Part shown: piece by piece, positions 30,490-44,262 of the stretch
How positions within the stretch are numbered: the stretch's first letter is position 1
Layout of the letters: every line of letters begins with the position of its first letter
Assembly (NCBI GenBank): GCA_963921275.4
Contig: OZ001293.3
Location: 160,001 to 224,000, forward strand
Length of the DNA stretch: 64,000 bases
Direction: 5' to 3'
From: an uncultured Hormoscilla sp.
Lineage (GTDB): Bacteria > Cyanobacteriota > Cyanobacteriia > Cyanobacteriales > Desertifilaceae
Position numbers and translations under genes: made by a program
The notes under the pieces: generated by a model
What the model was told of the DNA's origin: nothing
The model's input: the letters and a program-made list of their open reading frames with translations, nothing else
The model's database searches: none

Positions 30490-31268
30490 TTATAACCATT
30501 CTATTTTACGGGCTGCTTCTGGGAGTTTAGCTTCTTGTTGACCTCTAGATCGCGCTTTGGCTGTAAACAGACCAATGTACTTACCAAGTCGAGAACAGTT
30601 GCTTTGCCGAGGGTAGCCTTGACCATTGTGATTGGCAACTCTTTGAGCAACCACCGACTCAGGCCATAGTTCTCGTCTCGCCAAGTCATTTCTGGCATTA
30701 ATTTTACCCCGTGCAGTTCGTGCAGGTAAAGATTCGATCGACCATACCTGCGCCATTGACTTTCCAGTTCCTTCATTGACTGGCGATGACGGTGCTGTAC
30801 AATGGCTGTGGGGATGGGCTAGAGTATGTTTTTGGGATAGGGTATTCTGGCGATCAGCATATTGTTCTAGAAAGGTTTTTCCTGGCAGGGCCAATATCTC
30901 TCCGGCTACAATTCCTATACTGGGGTTGCTAAAAGGGCAATTAGGTTTTCTAACTAATCGGGTTGGGGGCGACAATCGGCATCGGTAAATGCTAGAATAT
31001 TACCAGTGGCTGCTTTGATACCCCGATTGCGAGCAGCATAGGAGCTTTGGATTTCCAATTCCGTCAGGTGTTTAATTGCTAGTGTCTGGTCCGATGCTGC
31101 TTGCAGGATATCAGGCGTGCGATCGCTACTCCTATTGTCTATCAGCAAATACTCTACTCGCGCTGCCGGGAAGCGCTGCTCTCTCAAGCATGACAGCAAC
31201 TCTGGCAAGTCTGCCTCTCCATTATATACTGGGACTATAACTGAAACCTTAAATTTTTCTTTGTTCAT
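30490..31268 (-). pseudogene. GT2 glycosyltransferase with several frameshifts and an internal deletion
   Basis: VSVIVPVYN, SYAARNRG, FTDADC; remainder spread over three frames. Confidence 0.8.
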
Positions 31269-31423
31269 TTTTTTGCTAACTGCACGATTTGTGTTATTAT
31301 CTTTATGGGAAACCGATGCTTGCTGCCGGCACTAGGCACAGATTTCCCATTATGAAAAAAAGCCGATCAGAAAATGTCAACTTTGGCAACCCCTTTTTTC
31401 AGATCGGGAGGGCAAGGTAGGGG

Positions 31424-31897
31424 ATGAAAAAGATGATTATCGGTGTAATGGGACCGGGTACTGGAGCCAAGGCCCAGGATCTGGAAAATGCCTATGAACT
31501 GGGCAGGCTAATTGCCGAACGGGGATGGGTACTGCTGACTGGCGGCAGGAATGTCGGGGTCATGGATGCTGCTAGTCGCGGGGCGAAGGCGGCTAATGGT
31601 TTGACGATCGGCATTCTCCCCAGCAGCGATAAAACAGGTATTTCCCCAGCGATCGATATTCCCATTATCACAGATTTGGGCAATGCTCGCAATAATATTA
31701 ACGTGCTTTCCTCTGATGTGGTGATTGCCTGTGGCATGAGTGCCGGGACAGCTTCGGAAATTGCTTTAGCCCTGAAAAGCCATAAGAAGGTAATTCTCTT
31801 AACCGATAATCAAGAAGCTAAAGCATTCTTCAGCCAACTGTCACCCAACCATGTTATGCTGAGCAATAGCCCAGAAGCGGCGATCAGGCTAATTTAG
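31424..31897 (+). CDS. LOG/SLOG-family protein (TIGR00725-like)
   Basis: TGGRNVGVMDAASRGA, GNARN, GTASEI. Confidence 0.85.
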   Translation: MKKMIIGVMGPGTGAKAQDLENAYELGRLIAERGWVLLTGGRNVGVMDAASRGAKAANGLTIGILPSSDKTGISPAIDIPIITDLGNARNNINVLSSDVVIACGMSAGTASEIALALKSHKKVILLTDNQEAKAFFSQLSPNHVMLSNSPEAAIRLI

Positions 31898-32189
31898 GCA
31901 TGTTAGACTCACGATCCGGCCCTTGGCTTAATTTATACCTTCATAAACTTTTAAAACAGCCTCTTAGGACTATTGGGAGTTTTTGATGTTTGCGGAATTT
32001 GCGCGAGCGCTTCTTCTGCGGTTTGGTGCGGTAAACCTGACGCCATTTCATATTCTTCATAACCCGCCGGTAGGTGGTAGCCGTTCGTAGTAAGGACTTT
32101 AGTCCTTATCAGCCGGTAGAAAGAATTCAGCACCGTACTGTTAACTGTGCTATAGTAGATGAGAACAGTAATTACCCCAAGGCTGGAAA

Positions 32190-32777
32190 ATGAACCCGAC
32201 CGCATCAAGCAGATTACAATTGACTTCTGACTTAAACATATGCCGGATATTGAATGGCATGTGGCAAGTATCTGGTGCCCACGGAAAAATCTACCCCAAA
32301 AAGGCGATCCAGAGTATGTTTGACTATATGGATGCAGGCTTCACGACCTGGGACTTGGCAGATCATTACGGTCCTGCGGAAGATTTTATTGGCGAGTTCC
32401 GACGTCAACTGGTGGCCAAACGGGGTGAAGAGGCTTTATCCAACCTGCAAGCTTTTACGCAGTGGGTGCCCAGACCTGGTAAAATGACTAAGCAGCTGGT
32501 GGAGAAGAATATTGATATCGGGCGCCAACGCATGGGAGTGGAGGCGATCGATCTAATGCAGTTCCACTGGTGGGAATATCGGGATGAAAATTACCTGGAC
32601 GCCCTCAAGTATATGGCGGAACTGCAAAGTGAGGGGAAAATTAAGCATCTGGCCTTGACTAACTTTGATACGGAACACCTGCAAATTATTACCGATGCTG
32701 GCATCAAAATTGTATCCAATCAGGTGCAGTTTTCTTTGGTTGATCGGCGTCCGTTAGTGAAGATGGTCCTTCATTGA
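32190..32777 (+). pseudogene. Aldo/keto reductase, N-terminal part, cut by an IS
   Basis: GMWQ, WDLADHYG, IDLMQFHWW, SNQVQFS; ends abruptly. Confidence 0.85.
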
Positions 32778-33040
32778 AGCGGCGATATCTCTTGCGTGCC
32801 GAGTCCCCTGGGACAAGAGCACGACAAGAGATATCGAAGGGCGATAACTCGAATCCATTGCAAGCCGTAGCCAGTGACTTCCGCCACGAAGGAAACTCTT
32901 GTTTCCTTTGGCTAACAACCAGACAATCTGCCACTGAGAGCGCTCTACCGGGTCAGCGGCTTCTCGATAACGCTTGGACATCTCTTCTACAGAAATATGC
33001 TCTTTGATGCACAGATGCTTACCCATAGTGAACAATAGAT
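32765..33040 (-). mobile_element. IS630-like transposase N-terminal remnant
   Basis: MGKHLCIKEHISVEEMSKRYREAADPVERSQWQIVWLLAKG...RYRRFNEGP. Confidence 0.65.
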
Positions 33041-33067
33041 TGCAACTTACCTCTAAAAGCATATATT

Positions 33068-33348: not shown

Positions 33349-33981
33349 TCAACTATACAGCTGGACGTATTCCCGAAATTTAGGGCCAAAATGTTTTAAG
33401 CAACGCTGATAAAAGGAACTTAAAGTCGAAATGCCAATGGAAAAATGAGCAGATATATCTTTCCAAGATTCTCCTTCAGCGCGGCGTTTGGCTATGGCCC
33501 GCAAGTTAGCGTCGGGCCGATCGCATATATACTTGGACTTAAACAATCCATCTGGGTCTTCATCCAGACAATTAATCACCAGAATGATCGGGGACATTTG
33601 CTTACTGTCATCGGCTAGTGTCTCATCTAGATAAGCTAACAGGGAATCATATTTTTTCTGTCCTATTCTATCCCAGTAGGGAGTATCTAAAGAAGTTTCA
33701 TACCAGGGGGTGTTGTAGCTATTAATCACGTCCAGAAACTTCTGGCGCAACAGAAAGTTAACCCAGTTCATGACCTTGCCTTTCCTAGGGTCGTAGTTGT
33801 CAATCTTGCGCCAGATATATAACCAGTTTTCCTGAAGGGCCTCGTCATAATTCTCTCGCCAAAAGTAATATTTATATTTATTGGGAACGTACAGGTCGCC
33901 AGAATTTTCCAGGGCCCGGATCAGGTTGGCAAAAGCCCGATCATGTTCGCGAGTGCCGGGTCGATGCCTTTGAATTTCCAA
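33349..33981 (-). CDS. Cyanobacterial sigma-70-like protein (start uncertain)
   Basis: YDEALQENWLYIWRKIDNYDP, VMNWVNFLL, C-terminal HTH ISTLSSFYQRCL. Confidence 0.7.
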   Translation of the reverse strand: MEIQRHRPGTREHDRAFANLIRALENSGDLYVPNKYKYYFWRENYDEALQENWLYIWRKIDNYDPRKGKVMNWVNFLLRQKFLDVINSYNTPWYETSLDTPYWDRIGQKKYDSLLAYLDETLADDSKQMSPIILVINCLDEDPDGLFKSKYICDRPDANLRAIAKRRAEGESWKDISAHFSIGISTLSSFYQRCLKHFGPKFREYVQLYS

Positions 33982-34025
33982 TGCCAGGTGAATTAGCTGT
34001 TTTTGAGTAATCTGACCGTACTCTT

Positions 34026-34502
34026 CTACTGGTTCGGACTCTTCTGGCTCGGAAGTGGAAGCTGCTCGTGATGGCGAATTTCTTCAGCGTAGTTGTTACC
34101 TGGGTCGATATCTGCTATTAGCTCAGCTACTTGCTTTCGGAGTTCGGGCTCCTGACTCCAATATAGCAGTTTGGTGAGGGCGGATATCGCCTGTGAGTTG
34201 CCCGTACCAACTTTTTTCCAGCTTGACACCGCCAGGGAGAGAGTCTGACGATCGGGACTTCGATGCAGCAGCTCAGTTAATATCTGGAGAGCATCGGGGT
34301 TGCCTGGCTGGATTTGAGCTAAAGTGGTGGCAACTAAGCAATCAGTATAATCAGCCTGATCGGTTTGCAGCTGTCCGATCAGATATGCCTGAGCCTCCCA
34401 ACTATCACCAGCAATAGACCGCAGCTCGGCCACCGCAGACCAAAACTGATATTTTTGCCGATCGCGGCTGAATAAATCAATCATAGCACCAAGCAGATAC
34501 AT
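34026..34502 (-). CDS. HEAT-repeat protein (possibly truncated by IS607)
   Basis: LAQIQPGNPDALQIL, VGTGNSQAISAL, IADIDPGN. Confidence 0.55.
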   Translation of the reverse strand: MYLLGAMIDLFSRDRQKYQFWSAVAELRSIAGDSWEAQAYLIGQLQTDQADYTDCLVATTLAQIQPGNPDALQILTELLHRSPDRQTLSLAVSSWKKVGTGNSQAISALTKLLYWSQEPELRKQVAELIADIDPGNNYAEEIRHHEQLPLPSQKSPNQ

Positions 34503-36194
34503 TTAACCCGAAAAAATCTTGTAATTGCCGGAAATTTCTGAGTATGGCACAATCTGGAATGAAGCTATCAGGCCAGATGCGGAGGTATCTCTCAAAGCCT
34601 TCAACAAAATGTTGAAAGCGCCATTAATATCACGACTAATAGTGTGACCACATGAGGGACAAATAAATCGTTTGTTGCCTCCTAACTTTATGTGAATGTG
34701 CCCACATTTTGAGCAAGTTTTGCTGGTGTACTCTTCCGTCACGTCTACTACAACACAGCCGTATTTAGCTGCTTGATGCTTCAACGTTTGCTTAAAACGG
34801 TAATGAGACCATGTAACCATTTTACGTGCTGTCTTAGTTGACAACCGTCGCTTGCCTCGTTTGACCATATTTTTAACCTCAAATGTAGGCAAAAATATGA
34901 CTTTGTACTTGGTGCATAGATAGTTGGCTGCTTTCTTATGCAGTTCATCAACCAAGTTACGAATCTTAACCCGAATCTTTTGTGCCGCCTTTCGCAGGCA
35001 GTGCCGTAGCCGCTTAAATTGGCGTCCTTTAGATAAGCCGATTCGAGACATTAGCCGATCGAGATGACTGGCTAACCGATAGATACGACCCATATCAGAC
35101 TTGCCAACCTCCCAAATTTCTTGACCGTCAAACCCAGTTAGAAATGTCCTGACACCTGGATCAAGGGCGATGGCTAGCTCACTGTTTAATGGTTCCAGTT
35201 TAGGCACGTCTATGGCATAACAGATAAACCAACGTCCTCTGTCTAGTACCAATGTAGGCTCATGGTGCATTTTGTCTATAATTGGCTCACTTGCTTTGAA
35301 CCTTAATCCTTTGGTCTGTGTTGGATAAAAATTTCCTTTTTTCCAGTTATTTTTCTGAAACCGGATAGACTTAACAGATTCACGTACTGAGCGAAATTTA
35401 GCATCTTCTCCTGATTTTCTTGCTGCTTTGTGTGCCTCATAAGCCTGAAATACCGCCAATTGGCGTGGGCTATATGGGGTTTGACTTACCCAAGATGGAG
35501 CCATATCCATGACCGTTTTGCGTAGGTCATATTTGCCAATCTTCTGATTTTTGAGTATAGCAATGGCTTGATTGAAGCACCATCTGGCTGCTGATATCCA
35601 TTGAAACCAGGTTTTAGCTAATGCCGTTTCTGGGTAAACTCGAATCTTCTTTGATAGCAGATTTGTACTTCCTGAGTCCATAGAGTCTGCAACTGAAGAC
35701 ATGGACGATGGCAAGGATATCCTCAACCATTTCTCGTTCTGGAGATAGGTCACTTCGGTTGAGAACCACGAGTTGGCAATCTTTTTGTTGACAGAGCCAC
35801 TCGATAAGGTCAAGTCCAAACCTGACAAGTCTGTCTTTGTGGCAGACCACAACTTCTTTGACATCTCCTGACATGACTTGTCCCAGAATGGATAAAAACC
35901 CTTTGCGTTTGTAGTTGAGTCCTGATCCGATTTCCTTGACAAGTTTTCCGTCTGTGAACAAGGATTGCAAATAGTCGGCTTGCCGTTCAAGGTCTGACTT
36001 TTGCTTATATGAACTGACTCTGGCGTAGAGGATTCTGATTCTTGGGGAGCCGTCTGGATTAATGACGGAGTCGATGTCGTATCGTCGATGACCAGCGGGA
36101 GTTCTAATTGTCTGTATTTTTCCGTCTCTATCCCAGTTTCGGAGTGTTTTTTCCGAGACCTGAAGGACTTGTGACGCTTCTCTCGGTGTGGCAT
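34503..36194 (-). CDS. tnpB: IS607 TnpB RNA-guided nuclease, Fanzor-like clade; start uncertain, ORF overlaps tnpA
   Basis: KKIRVYP, ARWCFN, IALDPGVRTF, VIFLP, VTEEYTSKTCSKCG, CPSCG, RDINGAFNI. Confidence 0.9.
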   Translation of the reverse strand: MPHREKRHKSFRSRKKHSETGIETEKYRQLELPLVIDDTTSTPSLIQTAPQESESSTPESVHISKSQTLNGKPTICNPCSQTENLSRKSDQDSTTNAKGFYPFWDKSCQEMSKKLWSATKTDLSGLDLTLSSGSVNKKIANSWFSTEVTYLQNEKWLRISLPSSMSSVADSMDSGSTNLLSKKIRVYPETALAKTWFQWISAARWCFNQAIAILKNQKIGKYDLRKTVMDMAPSWVSQTPYSPRQLAVFQAYEAHKAARKSGEDAKFRSVRESVKSIRFQKNNWKKGNFYPTQTKGLRFKASEPIIDKMHHEPTLVLDRGRWFICYAIDVPKLEPLNSELAIALDPGVRTFLTGFDGQEIWEVGKSDMGRIYRLASHLDRLMSRIGLSKGRQFKRLRHCLRKAAQKIRVKIRNLVDELHKKAANYLCTKYKVIFLPTFEVKNMVKRGKRRLSTKTARKMVTWSHYRFKQTLKHQAAKYGCVVVDVTEEYTSKTCSKCGHIHIKLGGNKRFICPSCGHTISRDINGAFNILLKALRDTSASGLIASFQIVPYSEISGNYKIFSG

Positions 36195-36201
36195 ATCTCA
36201 T
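35614..36201 (-). CDS. tnpA: IS607 serine-recombinase transposase
   Basis: MerR-like HTH (TLRNWD...GHRRY), YARVSS, DLERQ, GSGLN, DRLVRFG. Confidence 0.93.
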   Translation of the reverse strand: MRYATPREASQVLQVSEKTLRNWDRDGKIQTIRTPAGHRRYDIDSVINPDGSPRIRILYARVSSYKQKSDLERQADYLQSLFTDGKLVKEIGSGLNYKRKGFLSILGQVMSGDVKEVVVCHKDRLVRFGLDLIEWLCQQKDCQLVVLNRSDLSPEREMVEDILAIVHVFSCRLYGLRKYKSAIKEDSSLPRNGIS

Positions 36202-36309
36202 GATGTTTTTGTTTGCACTATCAATATTATACCACGCGCGAGAATATATTTCCGGAAAAATATATAAAATTCCTGAAAATCATACTTTAGTTATCAACAC
36301 CCAACGCTG

Positions 36310-36468
36310 TCAGGAAGATCAGGGTATCTGGAAGCAGTGGCTAGCTGGCTATCGCTGGGTGTATAACTGGACAGTGGCCCAACGGCGGCAGGATGCCAGA
36401 TCCGGAGCCTACAGCCTTCAAACTAAGTGCCGAGTCAGCAATCGCCCTGAGTGGGTGCGGGTGTGGCC
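36310..36468 (+). pseudogene. N-terminal relic of a second TnpB
   Basis: IWKQWLAGYRWVYNWTVA...AYSLQ...PEWV resembles WFQWISAARWCFNQAIA...KYDLR...PSWV. Confidence 0.55.
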
Positions 36469-36594
36469 AAAAGTAGTTGATAGAGTAGAGGAGAAAAGCT
36501 GTCCCCTTGGGTCAATTATGATAATCATTACGCGATGTGCAACTTTCTACGGAAGAATAAAGGCGAGACGCCCGCCCTACACGCTGCGCTTCCT

Positions 36595-36999
36595 CTACAG
36601 ATTGATAGAAATCGCTTGGACGGGACAGGCGGGAATGCATTGCTCGCAGACGATACAGCGCGATCGGGTGAAGGTGAGGCGCCCGCTGTCCGGGTCAAGT
36701 TTGAGGGCCTGGGTGGGACAGACGCCGGTGCAAAGTCCGCAATGGACACAGCTGTCTTCATCAATCAAAATCTCGCTTTTGGCCAGGGAGACGCTGATGT
36801 CCTGGGCGTGCATCCACTCGATCGCCGCTTCCAGTTCGTCGATGTCACCGGAGAGTTCCAAAACCAAGACCCCAATTTGATTGGGTGCTACCTGGGCCCG
36901 GATGATATTTGCTGCCACGTTAAAATCTTTAGCCAGTCGATAGGTAACCGGCATGCGCACAGCACTGCGCGGAAAAGTTAGCCTTACCCGTTTCTTCAT
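36595..36999 (-). CDS. NIL-domain 4Fe-4S dicluster ferredoxin
   Basis: NIIRAQV; CVHCGLCTGVCP and CIVCEQCIPACP. Confidence 0.9.
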   Translation of the reverse strand: MKKRVRLTFPRSAVRMPVTYRLAKDFNVAANIIRAQVAPNQIGVLVLELSGDIDELEAAIEWMHAQDISVSLAKSEILIDEDSCVHCGLCTGVCPTQALKLDPDSGRLTFTRSRCIVCEQCIPACPVQAISINL

Positions 37000-37055
37000 A
37001 CCTGTTATTATCTAAGAACTGTGCAATTGCCAACAAATATCATAGTTGTGCCCAG

Positions 37056-42210: not shown

Positions 42211-42964
42211 CTACTTTGATTTGACATGAGTTTCTAAATGACCGGCCAGTTGAATAAAGAAACGTTTGGCACTAAGCATATCGCATGGTTGTGTTACAGA
42301 AGGTGGGTTTGCTAATTTTGAAAGTAACAAACAACCAGCATCATAATGTCTTTCTCGGATTAGTTTTGTTAGTAAGATTTCGTAACGTTTAGCGTAGGAG
42401 ACTCCAATCTTGTTTTTGGGAGTGTATGTGCGATCGTGAAATTCGGCAAATGTTTCAAAATGAGGTTCCTTCAGTTTAATAGCACTTGTTGATTTTCGAT
42501 GTTCTTCCAATACAAAGAGATATCCTAACCTTGGTTTGATTCGATCGCCAAAAGCTCCCTCTCGGTAAGCGATCCATAAGTCATTAGCACTACCAATTGC
42601 TTCTTCTGCTCGATTATTAAAATTTTTCCCAAATGACCCTACTTGAGACTTAAATTCCATAGCTGCAACCAGAACTTGCTCATCTATTATGAGAATATCC
42701 CATTTTTTTTCAGGACGAAAGTACCCAGGTAATTCCAGTGCTTTTGAATGAAAGATACAGTCTTCTGATATCCCCTTTTCTAGCGCAATTCTTACCGTAA
42801 TTTCCTCAAAACCAGCCATTTGTTTTACCACCAGTGACAGCTGCTCGACCAAGGGATTGCGCATCTCTTTTACCGGTTGTCTTTTGCTCTTGGTTTCTGC
42901 GCGTATCCCAAAAATATTTTACGGCGTCTTCAATAAGTTTGTCGAGATTGTCTAGTACAGTCAT
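42211..42964 (-). pseudogene. PaeR7I/XhoI-family type II restriction endonuclease; extra A near 42825
   Basis: AVKYFWDTR, GRAAVTGGK|QMAGF, LPGYFRPEKKWD, EFKSQVGSFGKNFNNRAEEAIG. Confidence 0.8.
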
Positions 42965-44262
42965 TTTGTTAATAAAACCATATCTTCAAAGTAAATCTTT
43001 CCTTTCTTGTATTGGTTAGATTTGCTATTCACATGTGCCATGTGACCGCGAATAATTTCTCGATTGACAATTTCACTCTTGACTCCTAAATTATTCCCCA
43101 TCTCTACGTAAATATCACCAAGCTTGATTTCATGCTCCTTAAAATAGGAAGATTGAACTACGATAATGGCTCGATCATTATGCTTCAAGACTCTGATAAT
43201 TTCTCTTAGAGATAATTCAATATCCCGAAAATACTGGAGCATATTAGGTAGGTAGTAGGATGTCGCGGCTTTACTCCCATGTTTCTGTACGTTTTCTAGT
43301 AGCTGTAAACAAGTTTTACCCCAGGTAGAATTAATTTTGATAGATTTGTCTACGATCACAGGAGCACCAATAGTGTTTTCCCTGATTGTTCTCAAAGTTT
43401 TCGGGTCGAACATAATCAGAAGTTCCGGTCTCGTTGACATGGCGTAATCAATTCGCGTTAAATATGGAGGAGATGTTATCACTGCATCGATCGCATTGTC
43501 TAGAAGGCAAATATTTCGAGAATCTGCTAAAAGTGGTAAATGCAAGATTTTATCATTTATTGCGATCGAGGATAAATCTAAATCCCGAATCATCGAACCG
43601 ACAACTCTCTTGTATTCCGAGATAATATCTGTTTCGCCTACCTCGGGTTTTTCTGATTGAGTTTTCACCCAAGTTGGGTTAGAGCCACATTTGTATCCAG
43701 CCAAATTCCGGGCTGTTATAAATAATGCTGCTTGGAAAAACGCCTGAAAAGGGTTGAGTTGAATTTTATCCTTGACAATCATTTTTAAGATTGCTCGATC
43801 GAAGTGGGGTTCGGGATACTCTTGTGAATGAACGATTGCATATAAATTCCGAATACCGCAGCAGAGGCTTGCAGATATAAAATCCCCAAGGGGGTCTGGG
43901 GTTGGGATTGAACCATGAAGGCTTTTACAGGTAATCTTTAGGGATAGTTCTGCTAGCAAATGTTTTTGGCCGAGCAAATAACCGCTCTTAGCATAGGAAA
44001 ATACATTCATTACAGGATTTATTTCGCATCCCAGGGTTGCTATTCCCCACCGGGAAGCAACCAGTGCTGTCGTCCCGCTGCCATTCCAAGGATCCAGCAG
44101 TAGAGGAGAGGAAGTAGAGTCAAGCTTTAGGTAGGCGATTGCCGAGGAAACGAAGGCTTCACTATAGCCAGCATAATAGGGATGCTAAGCATGTACCCCA
44201 AGTCGTTCTTTGCGGCTGCGTTTAGCACTAGCCAAGGTGGGAAAAAGAGAAGTTTGCAGCAT
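42961..44262 (-). pseudogene. Amino-type (probably N4-cytosine) DNA methyltransferase; in-frame TAG at 44185-44187
   Basis: HA*HPYYAGY, LDPWNGSGTT, ITSPPY; overlaps the REase start. Confidence 0.8.

Follow-up and report, generated by a model that had tools for sequence, protein, structure and literature searches.

The window analysed here is a stretch of 64,000 nt from an uncultured Hormoscilla sp. (contig OZ001293.3, positions 160,001 to 224,000), and all coordinates are given in window numbering. An IS607 element of 1,806 bp, including a TG core at each end, is located at 34494..36299 on the minus strand (-), on which all features of the element and its junctions described below are read. 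The element carries two genes, of which tnpA (35614..36201) encodes a protein of 195 aa with a MerR HTH and a serine recombinase part (Pfam MerR and Resolvase, NF033518) that scores 196 bits against NF033518, transpos_IS607 (cut-off 110), as an IS607 TnpA should. The second gene, tnpB (34503..36194), was identified by ORF analysis as a frame of 563 codons in +1 relative to tnpA, with an ATG located 7 nt after the tnpA ATG; TnpB residues are numbered according to this 563-aa frame. A preliminary description of the locus had reported an IS607 element with unbroken tnpA and tnpB; indeed, both frames are intact, and the TnpA score and the TG core at both ends agree with the family assignment.

The ends of the element were determined by aligning its copies. 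The genome contains five full copies (≥99.5% identity), one right half and one 110-bp left end (95%); among the full copies, four are of equal length and 5-10 nt apart, and the fifth has a 1-nt deletion in tnpB. Agreement runs from the TG at 36299 to the TG at 34494, both ends are identical in the five full copies, and the flanks diverge directly after the TG, so that the extent of 34503..36290 proposed earlier had to be corrected. The right end, ATGTATCTG, is conserved in relatives. At the insertion site C1:49.9k, a single TG in the reconstructed empty site restores a long open host frame, which fits the expectation of a shared dinucleotide core, and the element has the properties of an IS607 in that this core is common to both ends, without target duplication and without long inverted repeats. 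From the five copies, the close similarity of the four equal-length ones and the restored frame at C1:49.9k we conclude that the element is intact and recently mobile, as had been supposed. Neither an excision joint nor a circle was detected in the DNA contigs of four runs, which drop rare forms. The RNA-library contigs of four runs stem for the most part from diverged relatives and give no information on ends, strand or level, and were therefore set aside as evidence of expression. A metagenome scan for the left end yielded four stretches with two distinct sites, and a 16-mer scan of viral contigs for the right end yielded 80 loci, 0 of which had TnpB homology. The right ends of six more distant relatives (L034, L035, L039, L055, L060 and L164) read GTATC-AG and not GTATC-TG, which suggests an AG core in this branch.

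Similar short motifs had been noted at both ends of the element. Indeed, TTTCCGGAA (≤1 mismatch) occurs three times, at element positions 22, 42 and 1766 of 1806, all of which are at most 45 nt away from an end, compared with about 0.4 occurrences expected at the genome rate, and a fourth, weaker copy is located at element position 1786. Two 9-bp motifs at the left end (TTTCAGGAA and TTTCCGGAA; 36250..36278) are 20 bp apart, as are two right-end motifs (TTTCCGGCA and TTTTCGGGT; 34506..34534) identified by motif search. By analogy to the phased TnpA sites of IS1535 (PMC6188088), the paired end motifs are likely to be TnpA binding sites. A possible extended -10 promoter element, TGGTATAAT (36226..36234), was picked out by eye; a promoter scan, which requires a -35, returned nothing above chance and did not list TGGTATAAT in its output.

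Both flanks are decayed, in agreement with the decaying region described before. The right flank (34026-34493) is the tail of a NACHT-HEAT gene, which is intact in G001 (>900 codons), and the left flank (36300-36458) is a broken piece of another pro-Fanzor-type tnpB on the opposite strand. The right end of the element coincides with the break point of the NACHT-HEAT gene, and no front part of this gene was found in the genome. The arrangement might result from the loss of the DNA between two element copies, in which case the two flanks at this locus may stem from different insertions; cross-pairing left with right flanks of different copies identified no swap partner. The 72 bp at 36459-36530 belong to another repeated element, of which they form one end and which has at least 6 further copies in the genome. 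Elsewhere in the window, a truncated glycosyltransferase (104 aa) and an aldo-keto reductase remnant (profile 2-170 of 291) lie at 30954-33062, with a 102-aa ORF at the break, and an XhoI-family restriction endonuclease adjoins a DNA methylase-like gene at 42211-44010. In the same assembly (G000), contig C3 (31 kb, 17.6% GC vs 47% GC in the genome) is likely to be foreign to the organism.

The active site of TnpB is rearranged. RuvC-I Asp345 (35160..35162) reads DPG and RuvC-III Asp522 (34629..34631) is part of RDING, while P436 of VIFLP aligns to the canonical RuvC-II Glu of ISDra2 TnpB, i.e. the canonical Glu is lost. A relocated RuvC-II Glu487 (34734..34736) falls in VTEEYTSKTC, six residues before the zinc finger, and is Glu in 97 of 97 aligned proteins, across which the entire D-E-D triad is invariant. 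All of these motifs had been reported at the places where we find them, and TnpB had been interpreted as Fanzor-like (pro-Fanzor). The published pro-Fanzor pattern (5-6 spacer) matches TnpB and 116 of the 150 nearest cluster representatives, and the score of TnpB against the canonical IS607 TnpB profile NF038280 (56.7 bits) is below the cut-off of 350. The best PDB match, both by sequence and by fold, is the mimivirus Fanzor2 9B0L. A phylogeny with TnpB and Fanzor2 had been named as a check: in a tree of 85 proteins, which excludes 18 near-duplicate loci and does not contain ApmFz2 itself, TnpB is placed in a cyanobacterial clade (SH-aLRT 99) inside a DPG group that also holds giant-virus MAG loci and the Naegleria Fanzor2 P0059 and that is split from 9 canonical rows (SH-aLRT 87; long branches). 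Since the tree cannot root the DPG clade, we leave the direction of transfer uninferred. The same-genus and nearest relatives are cyanobacterial, which corresponds to the cyanobacterial, IS607-encoded setting of pro-Fanzors; the host is a cyanobacterium, not a eukaryote or eukaryotic virus as for Fanzor2. In addition, Table S5 of PMC10711439 lists the Coleofasciculus protein WP_052307456.1 as a pro-Fanzor, which we assigned to the same family by eye; the L016 locus of C. chthonoplastes has 88% identity. Judged by these comparisons, the element encodes a pro-Fanzor of an already published group, and TnpB is likely to be an RNA-guided DNA cutter.

The omega-RNA had been expected to overlap the tnpB 3' end. 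We predict its scaffold core at 34494..34624, in the right-end part of tnpB, as a candidate derived from covariation and fold. It would comprise a 10-bp hairpin (34619-34597), a stem-loop with a 3-bp stem (34593-34582) and a pseudoknot (34589-34585 with 34500-34496), formed by the loop sequence GAUAC and the GUAUC that directly precedes the terminal UG; the pseudoknot variants in relatives are GACGG/CCGUC, GCAAC/GUUGC and GAUAU/AUAUC. The covariation set consisted of the last 141 nt of 21 sequences, excluding L018, L033 and L036 with unclear ends, and leans in its own favour, because the structure was drawn from the same sequences and three loci were left out; in this set, 98.1% of the 378 cells of the 18-pair structure are paired, compared with 37-43% when the structure is slid, and 12 of the 18 pairs changed on both sides. 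The pseudoknot cells are 100% paired, with two-sided changes in 4 of 5 pairs. For 10 close relatives, the prediction includes an outer helix, and synonymous change is suppressed in the last 43 tnpB codons (0.075 vs 0.275 per codon). In the folding check suggested for the right end, single-sequence folding gave a weak signal (z about -2.2), and only the covariation was convincing; an Rfam search of 33500-37000 gave no match. From these results, an omega-RNA with a pseudoknot is predicted inside the tnpB 3' end. The guide, which had been thought to run into the right flank from about 34505, is still predicted in this flank, yet with a different boundary: as the copies fix the right end at the TG at 34494, it would start at 34493, 11 nt off. 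According to the boundary rule of PMC10711439 and PMC10690162 and the divergence of the flanks right after the TG, we place it at 34474..34493, with an assumed length. No match elsewhere in the genome to any of the six 14-nt flank guides (five guides examined plus one copy without right end) was found behind GTG with 1 mismatch allowed.

At the left junction (36298..36302), host GGG is followed by the core TG, and from the flanks of the five copies and by analogy (PMC10711439 supplement; PMC10690162) this junction is predicted to act as TAM with the consensus RRG-TG. The left flanks read GGG, GAG, AAG, GAG and GGG, so that all five copies have a G directly ahead of the left TG; in the genome at large, 17% of TGs follow a G, and in close relatives this base is mostly C. 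Residue 242 of TnpB, a predicted TAM-reading position (AGC, 35469..35471), is Ser in the family of the window element and in L010; the other 17 close relatives compared all have Asn. Among the sites for which both are known, counted by distinct site and tallied by hand, Ser occurs with G-TG in 6 of 6 and Asn with C-TG in 13 of 14, with A once (L201) and G never (Fisher test, p 3e-5 by site and 0.008 by lineage). Among the 758 residues of TnpA and TnpB, residue 242 is the sole one exclusive to the window element and L010. L010 groups with the Asn, C-TG relatives, and since a single clade of the window element and L010 is rejected (AU p 2e-11), Ser arose twice. By hand count of the alignments, residue 242 corresponds to His215 of ApmFz2, a TAM contact at dG(0)/dG(-2) (PMC11832414), and to the TAM contact F77 of ISDra2, which adjoins K76, the reader of the -3 base (PMC10097598).

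Residue 242 is thus likely to be a natural TAM switch, at which Ser or Asn likely determines whether TAM position -3 is G or C. The case, which is a new lead, rests on two Ser lineages, one of them with a single site. The association is in line with the published view that it is TnpB that decides which insertions are kept (PMC10711439 supplement). Alternatively, the transposase or the donor end might determine the preference for G-TG or C-TG, with Ser242 being a coincidence or having been adjusted later. TGGG sites are preferred by CboTnpA on its own (PMC10690162), the left-end nucleotide 36276 is also exclusive to the window element and L010 among the covered relatives, and just two Ser lineages are known; nevertheless, no TnpA residue is exclusive to the two G-TG lineages, and residue 242 maps onto known TAM contacts. 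We consider a preference set in this way unlikely, although it deserves to be taken seriously.

No stop interrupts the tnpB frame over the entire length of tnpA, which gives an extension of 171 codons, and many of the nearest representatives have 548-600 aa and the same offset between tnpA and tnpB. Within the extension, the conserved PFW..LW..SWF (P-F-W, S..LW and N-S-W-F) marks a putative Fanzor2-type N-terminal domain overprinted on tnpA (aa 100-175, 35670..35897; PFW 102-104, NSWF 141-144). W143 is invariant across 97 of 97 aligned proteins, and in a profile alignment NSW matches N82-S83-W84 of ApmFz2, which shares the SW part of the motif only and in which N82 and S83 contact the omega-RNA pseudoknot (PMC11832414). 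The pLDDT of an AlphaFold2 model is 88 for aa 101-110 and 92 for aa 141-150, and <50 for aa 1-99 and at aa 163-174; the thumb part is poorly modelled. Residues 100-539 of the model align to aa 53-518 of 9B0L (Z 26.9, rmsd 3.3, 411 aligned), whereas TnpB structures align to it only from aa 176-178 onward. Based on the model, residues 100-175 are predicted to fold like the N-terminal domain of Fanzor2 (RuvC-R, thumb), which was termed unique among the available TnpB structures (PMC11832414); the extension has no match in Pfam or PHROG families. The preliminary term 'compact' for this nuclease was overstated, because the N-terminal domain is written inside tnpA: the frame has 563 codons and not about 390, and the protein likely has 465-563 aa.

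Selection on the second frame was assessed in 82 distinct intact tnpA genes. Stops in +1 are absent from the tnpA 3' half in 54 of 54 DPG-type loci, 0 of 11 canonical and 2 of 17 unclassified ones, where only 16 of the 54 (two of them from this genome) are unbiased, because the other 38 were retrieved with a query containing the extension, and where the canonical control genes have a lower GC content (0.36 vs 0.46). When the window tnpA was resampled, 11 stops were expected with uniform synonymous codons and 3.1 with its own codons shuffled, compared with 0 observed; zero-stop outcomes occurred in 0 of 300 and 2 of 300 resamplings, respectively. Conservation of the +1 frame in the 54 loci (W104 in 51, S142 in 52, W143 in 51, F144 in 50) means that synonymous codons in tnpA are fixed. 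Of 42 loci that gave no tnpA match, 32 still keep the domain. In Coleofasciculus derivatives, the tnpA 5' half is deleted up to just before the motif and a new Met is supplied; in L048, the motif has disappeared from the tnpB frame. For aa 1-98, close relatives show 0.045 synonymous vs 0.309 non-synonymous changes per codon, i.e. no protein-level constraint. From the sequence evidence as a whole we conclude that the tnpB frame through tnpA likely encodes an RNA-guided nuclease of 563 residues that has an N-terminal domain of the Fanzor2 type.

How this domain is reached by translation allows for other readings. It might be real and yet be produced via a programmed +1 frameshift from tnpA or an internal TTG start, resulting in a fusion of the TnpA HTH and TnpB or in a protein of about 480-495 aa. 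Some relatives tolerate +1 stops up to tnpA codon 76, and the window frame has TTGs at aa 69 and 85; the in-frame fusions in L004, L010 and L017, which would also fit, resemble indel mutants or assembly errors. An in-frame ATG follows the last stop ahead of the motif in 56 of 56 loci, a weak argument given its high chance rate, and the ATG near +7 is retained in most cyanobacterial copies examined, from which we regard a frameshift or TTG start as rather improbable. No Shine-Dalgarno sequence is evident before the ATG at 36194. The other possibility is a TnpB start at Met172 (which would give 392 aa) or close to it, following NCBI-style annotation; the open second frame would then be either a remnant or a side effect of how tnpA uses its codons. 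The published pro-Fanzor WP_052307456.1 begins just before the core, after the motif, and pro-Fanzors are treated as shorter than Fanzor2 in PMC10711439 (Yoon) and its supplement. However, Met172 is Thr in most close relatives, the absence of stops departs from both resampling expectations, and the motif persists where tnpA is gone, often closely preceded by a Met, which makes the short protein very improbable.

The first codons of the overprinted frame (36194-36140) are rich in Lys/Arg and predicted to be disordered, and by eye resemble the Fanzor2 NLS region. A second pro-Fanzor IS607 family is present in the genome as decayed copies (G000:C1:4418693-4419400 and 3054844-3056387), which also carry PFW..SWF in the tnpA +1 frame. 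In Microcoleus phage My-WqHQDG (OR578706.1; L211:1065-2772), an intact 200-codon tnpA is nested in a long tnpB frame, of which the GenBank annotation gives the long frame only, as hypothetical protein. Vibrio phage F100 (OZ195714.1; L345:656-2200) encodes a TnpB with the same N-terminal motif and relocated Glu, with DVG in place of DPG and without zinc finger, and its annotated start lies after the motif. Matches to it occur in twenty Vibrio phage records, so the lineage is not confined to cyanobacteria.

No description of the tnpA/tnpB overprint was found in the literature searched, with subscription journals, ISfinder entries and most supplements beyond reach; the term look-ups returned none in the accessible text of the PMC10711439 preprint, PMC10530073, PMC10432273, PMC3627910, PMC3673617, PMC13565253 and PMC10691335, of which PMC3673617 mentions that IS607 ORFs overlap and nothing further on an overprint. 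The overprinted domain thus appears to be unpublished. That TnpB binds DNA or RNA and no longer cuts, e.g. as a repressor, has little to recommend it beyond a private G263E change in this copy, given the invariant triad and the cleavage by ApmFz2, which has the same rearranged triad (PMC11832414).

Taken together, we put at roughly three in four the reading that the locus holds an intact, recently mobile IS607, whose tnpB runs through tnpA and likely yields a 563-residue Fanzor2-type nuclease, with Ser242/Asn242 likely setting TAM position -3. In analogy to known IS607 systems, TnpA would bind the end motifs, excise the element as a circle and insert it at TG cores, leaving a scarless joint. 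What our analysis would add is that a single transcript gives TnpA from the ATG at 36201 and TnpB from the ATG at 36194, and that the overprinted domain is needed: TnpB residues 1-99 are predicted to be disordered, and the part from residue 100 to 175 would both complete RuvC and grip the pseudoknot of the omega-RNA. The last bases of the omega-RNA would be UCUG, with the right flank as guide, and, again as in known systems, TnpB would cut the empty joints, which would be restored by recombination from another chromosome copy. These joints would be of the RRG-TG type by our reading, and if Ser242/Asn242 sets the -3 base, TAM-matching insertions would be the ones that are retained.

A construct cloned from a database pro-Fanzor annotation would likely lack the RNA-holding domain, which the long frame supplies. 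A folded domain over a transposase in another frame would be a rare case of bacterial dual coding, and the overprint suggests where a Fanzor2 feature that has been termed unique may have come from. With the Ser/Asn242 pair, a single residue bears on the idea that TnpB rather than TnpA shapes the spectrum of IS607 insertion sites, and the pair provides a lead to TAM determinants. In its widest form, the proposal would be that the N-terminal domain of Fanzor2 arose through overprinting on the IS607 transposase gene and that pro-Fanzors depend on it, their annotated proteins thus being truncated; that two starts 7 nt apart give both proteins from one mRNA, which could have enabled this IS607 lineage to function in eukaryotes; and that in this family a single natural Asn-to-Ser change twice retargeted the TAM and reshaped transposon sites via retention of cuttable sites. 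This we hold tentatively, as having somewhat less than an even chance of being right in full.

Compared with the pro-Fanzors of PMC10711439 (TnpB2 with DPG), the element shares the DPG, the alternative Glu, the IS607 TnpA and the cyanobacterial host, but the frame extends 171 codons into tnpA with a predicted Fanzor2 domain, and the core is TG vs GG. The mimivirus Fanzor2 ApmFz2 (9B0L, PMC11832414) has the same rearranged triad, N-terminal domain and pseudoknot at the scaffold 3' end; in contrast, the protein described here has 24% identity to it, a prokaryotic host, an omega-RNA inside the coding end and a predicted TAM of RRG-TG vs GGG, as well as a domain overprinted on tnpA, a comparison that leaves aside the tnpA layout of ApmFz2 itself. 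The Naegleria lovaniensis Fanzor2 cluster P0059 belongs to the DPG clade and keeps PFW..LW..WF, but is eukaryotic. In the cyanobacterial canonical IS607s compared here, the tnpA overlap is at most 26 nt, with 13-24 stops in the +1 frame. The canonical ISXfa1 and CboIStron (PMC10711439, PMC10690162) differ in their canonical RuvC-II and resemble the element in the serine TnpA, the dinucleotide core and a scaffold ending at the core, and they share the model of donor-joint cleavage with the reading proposed here.
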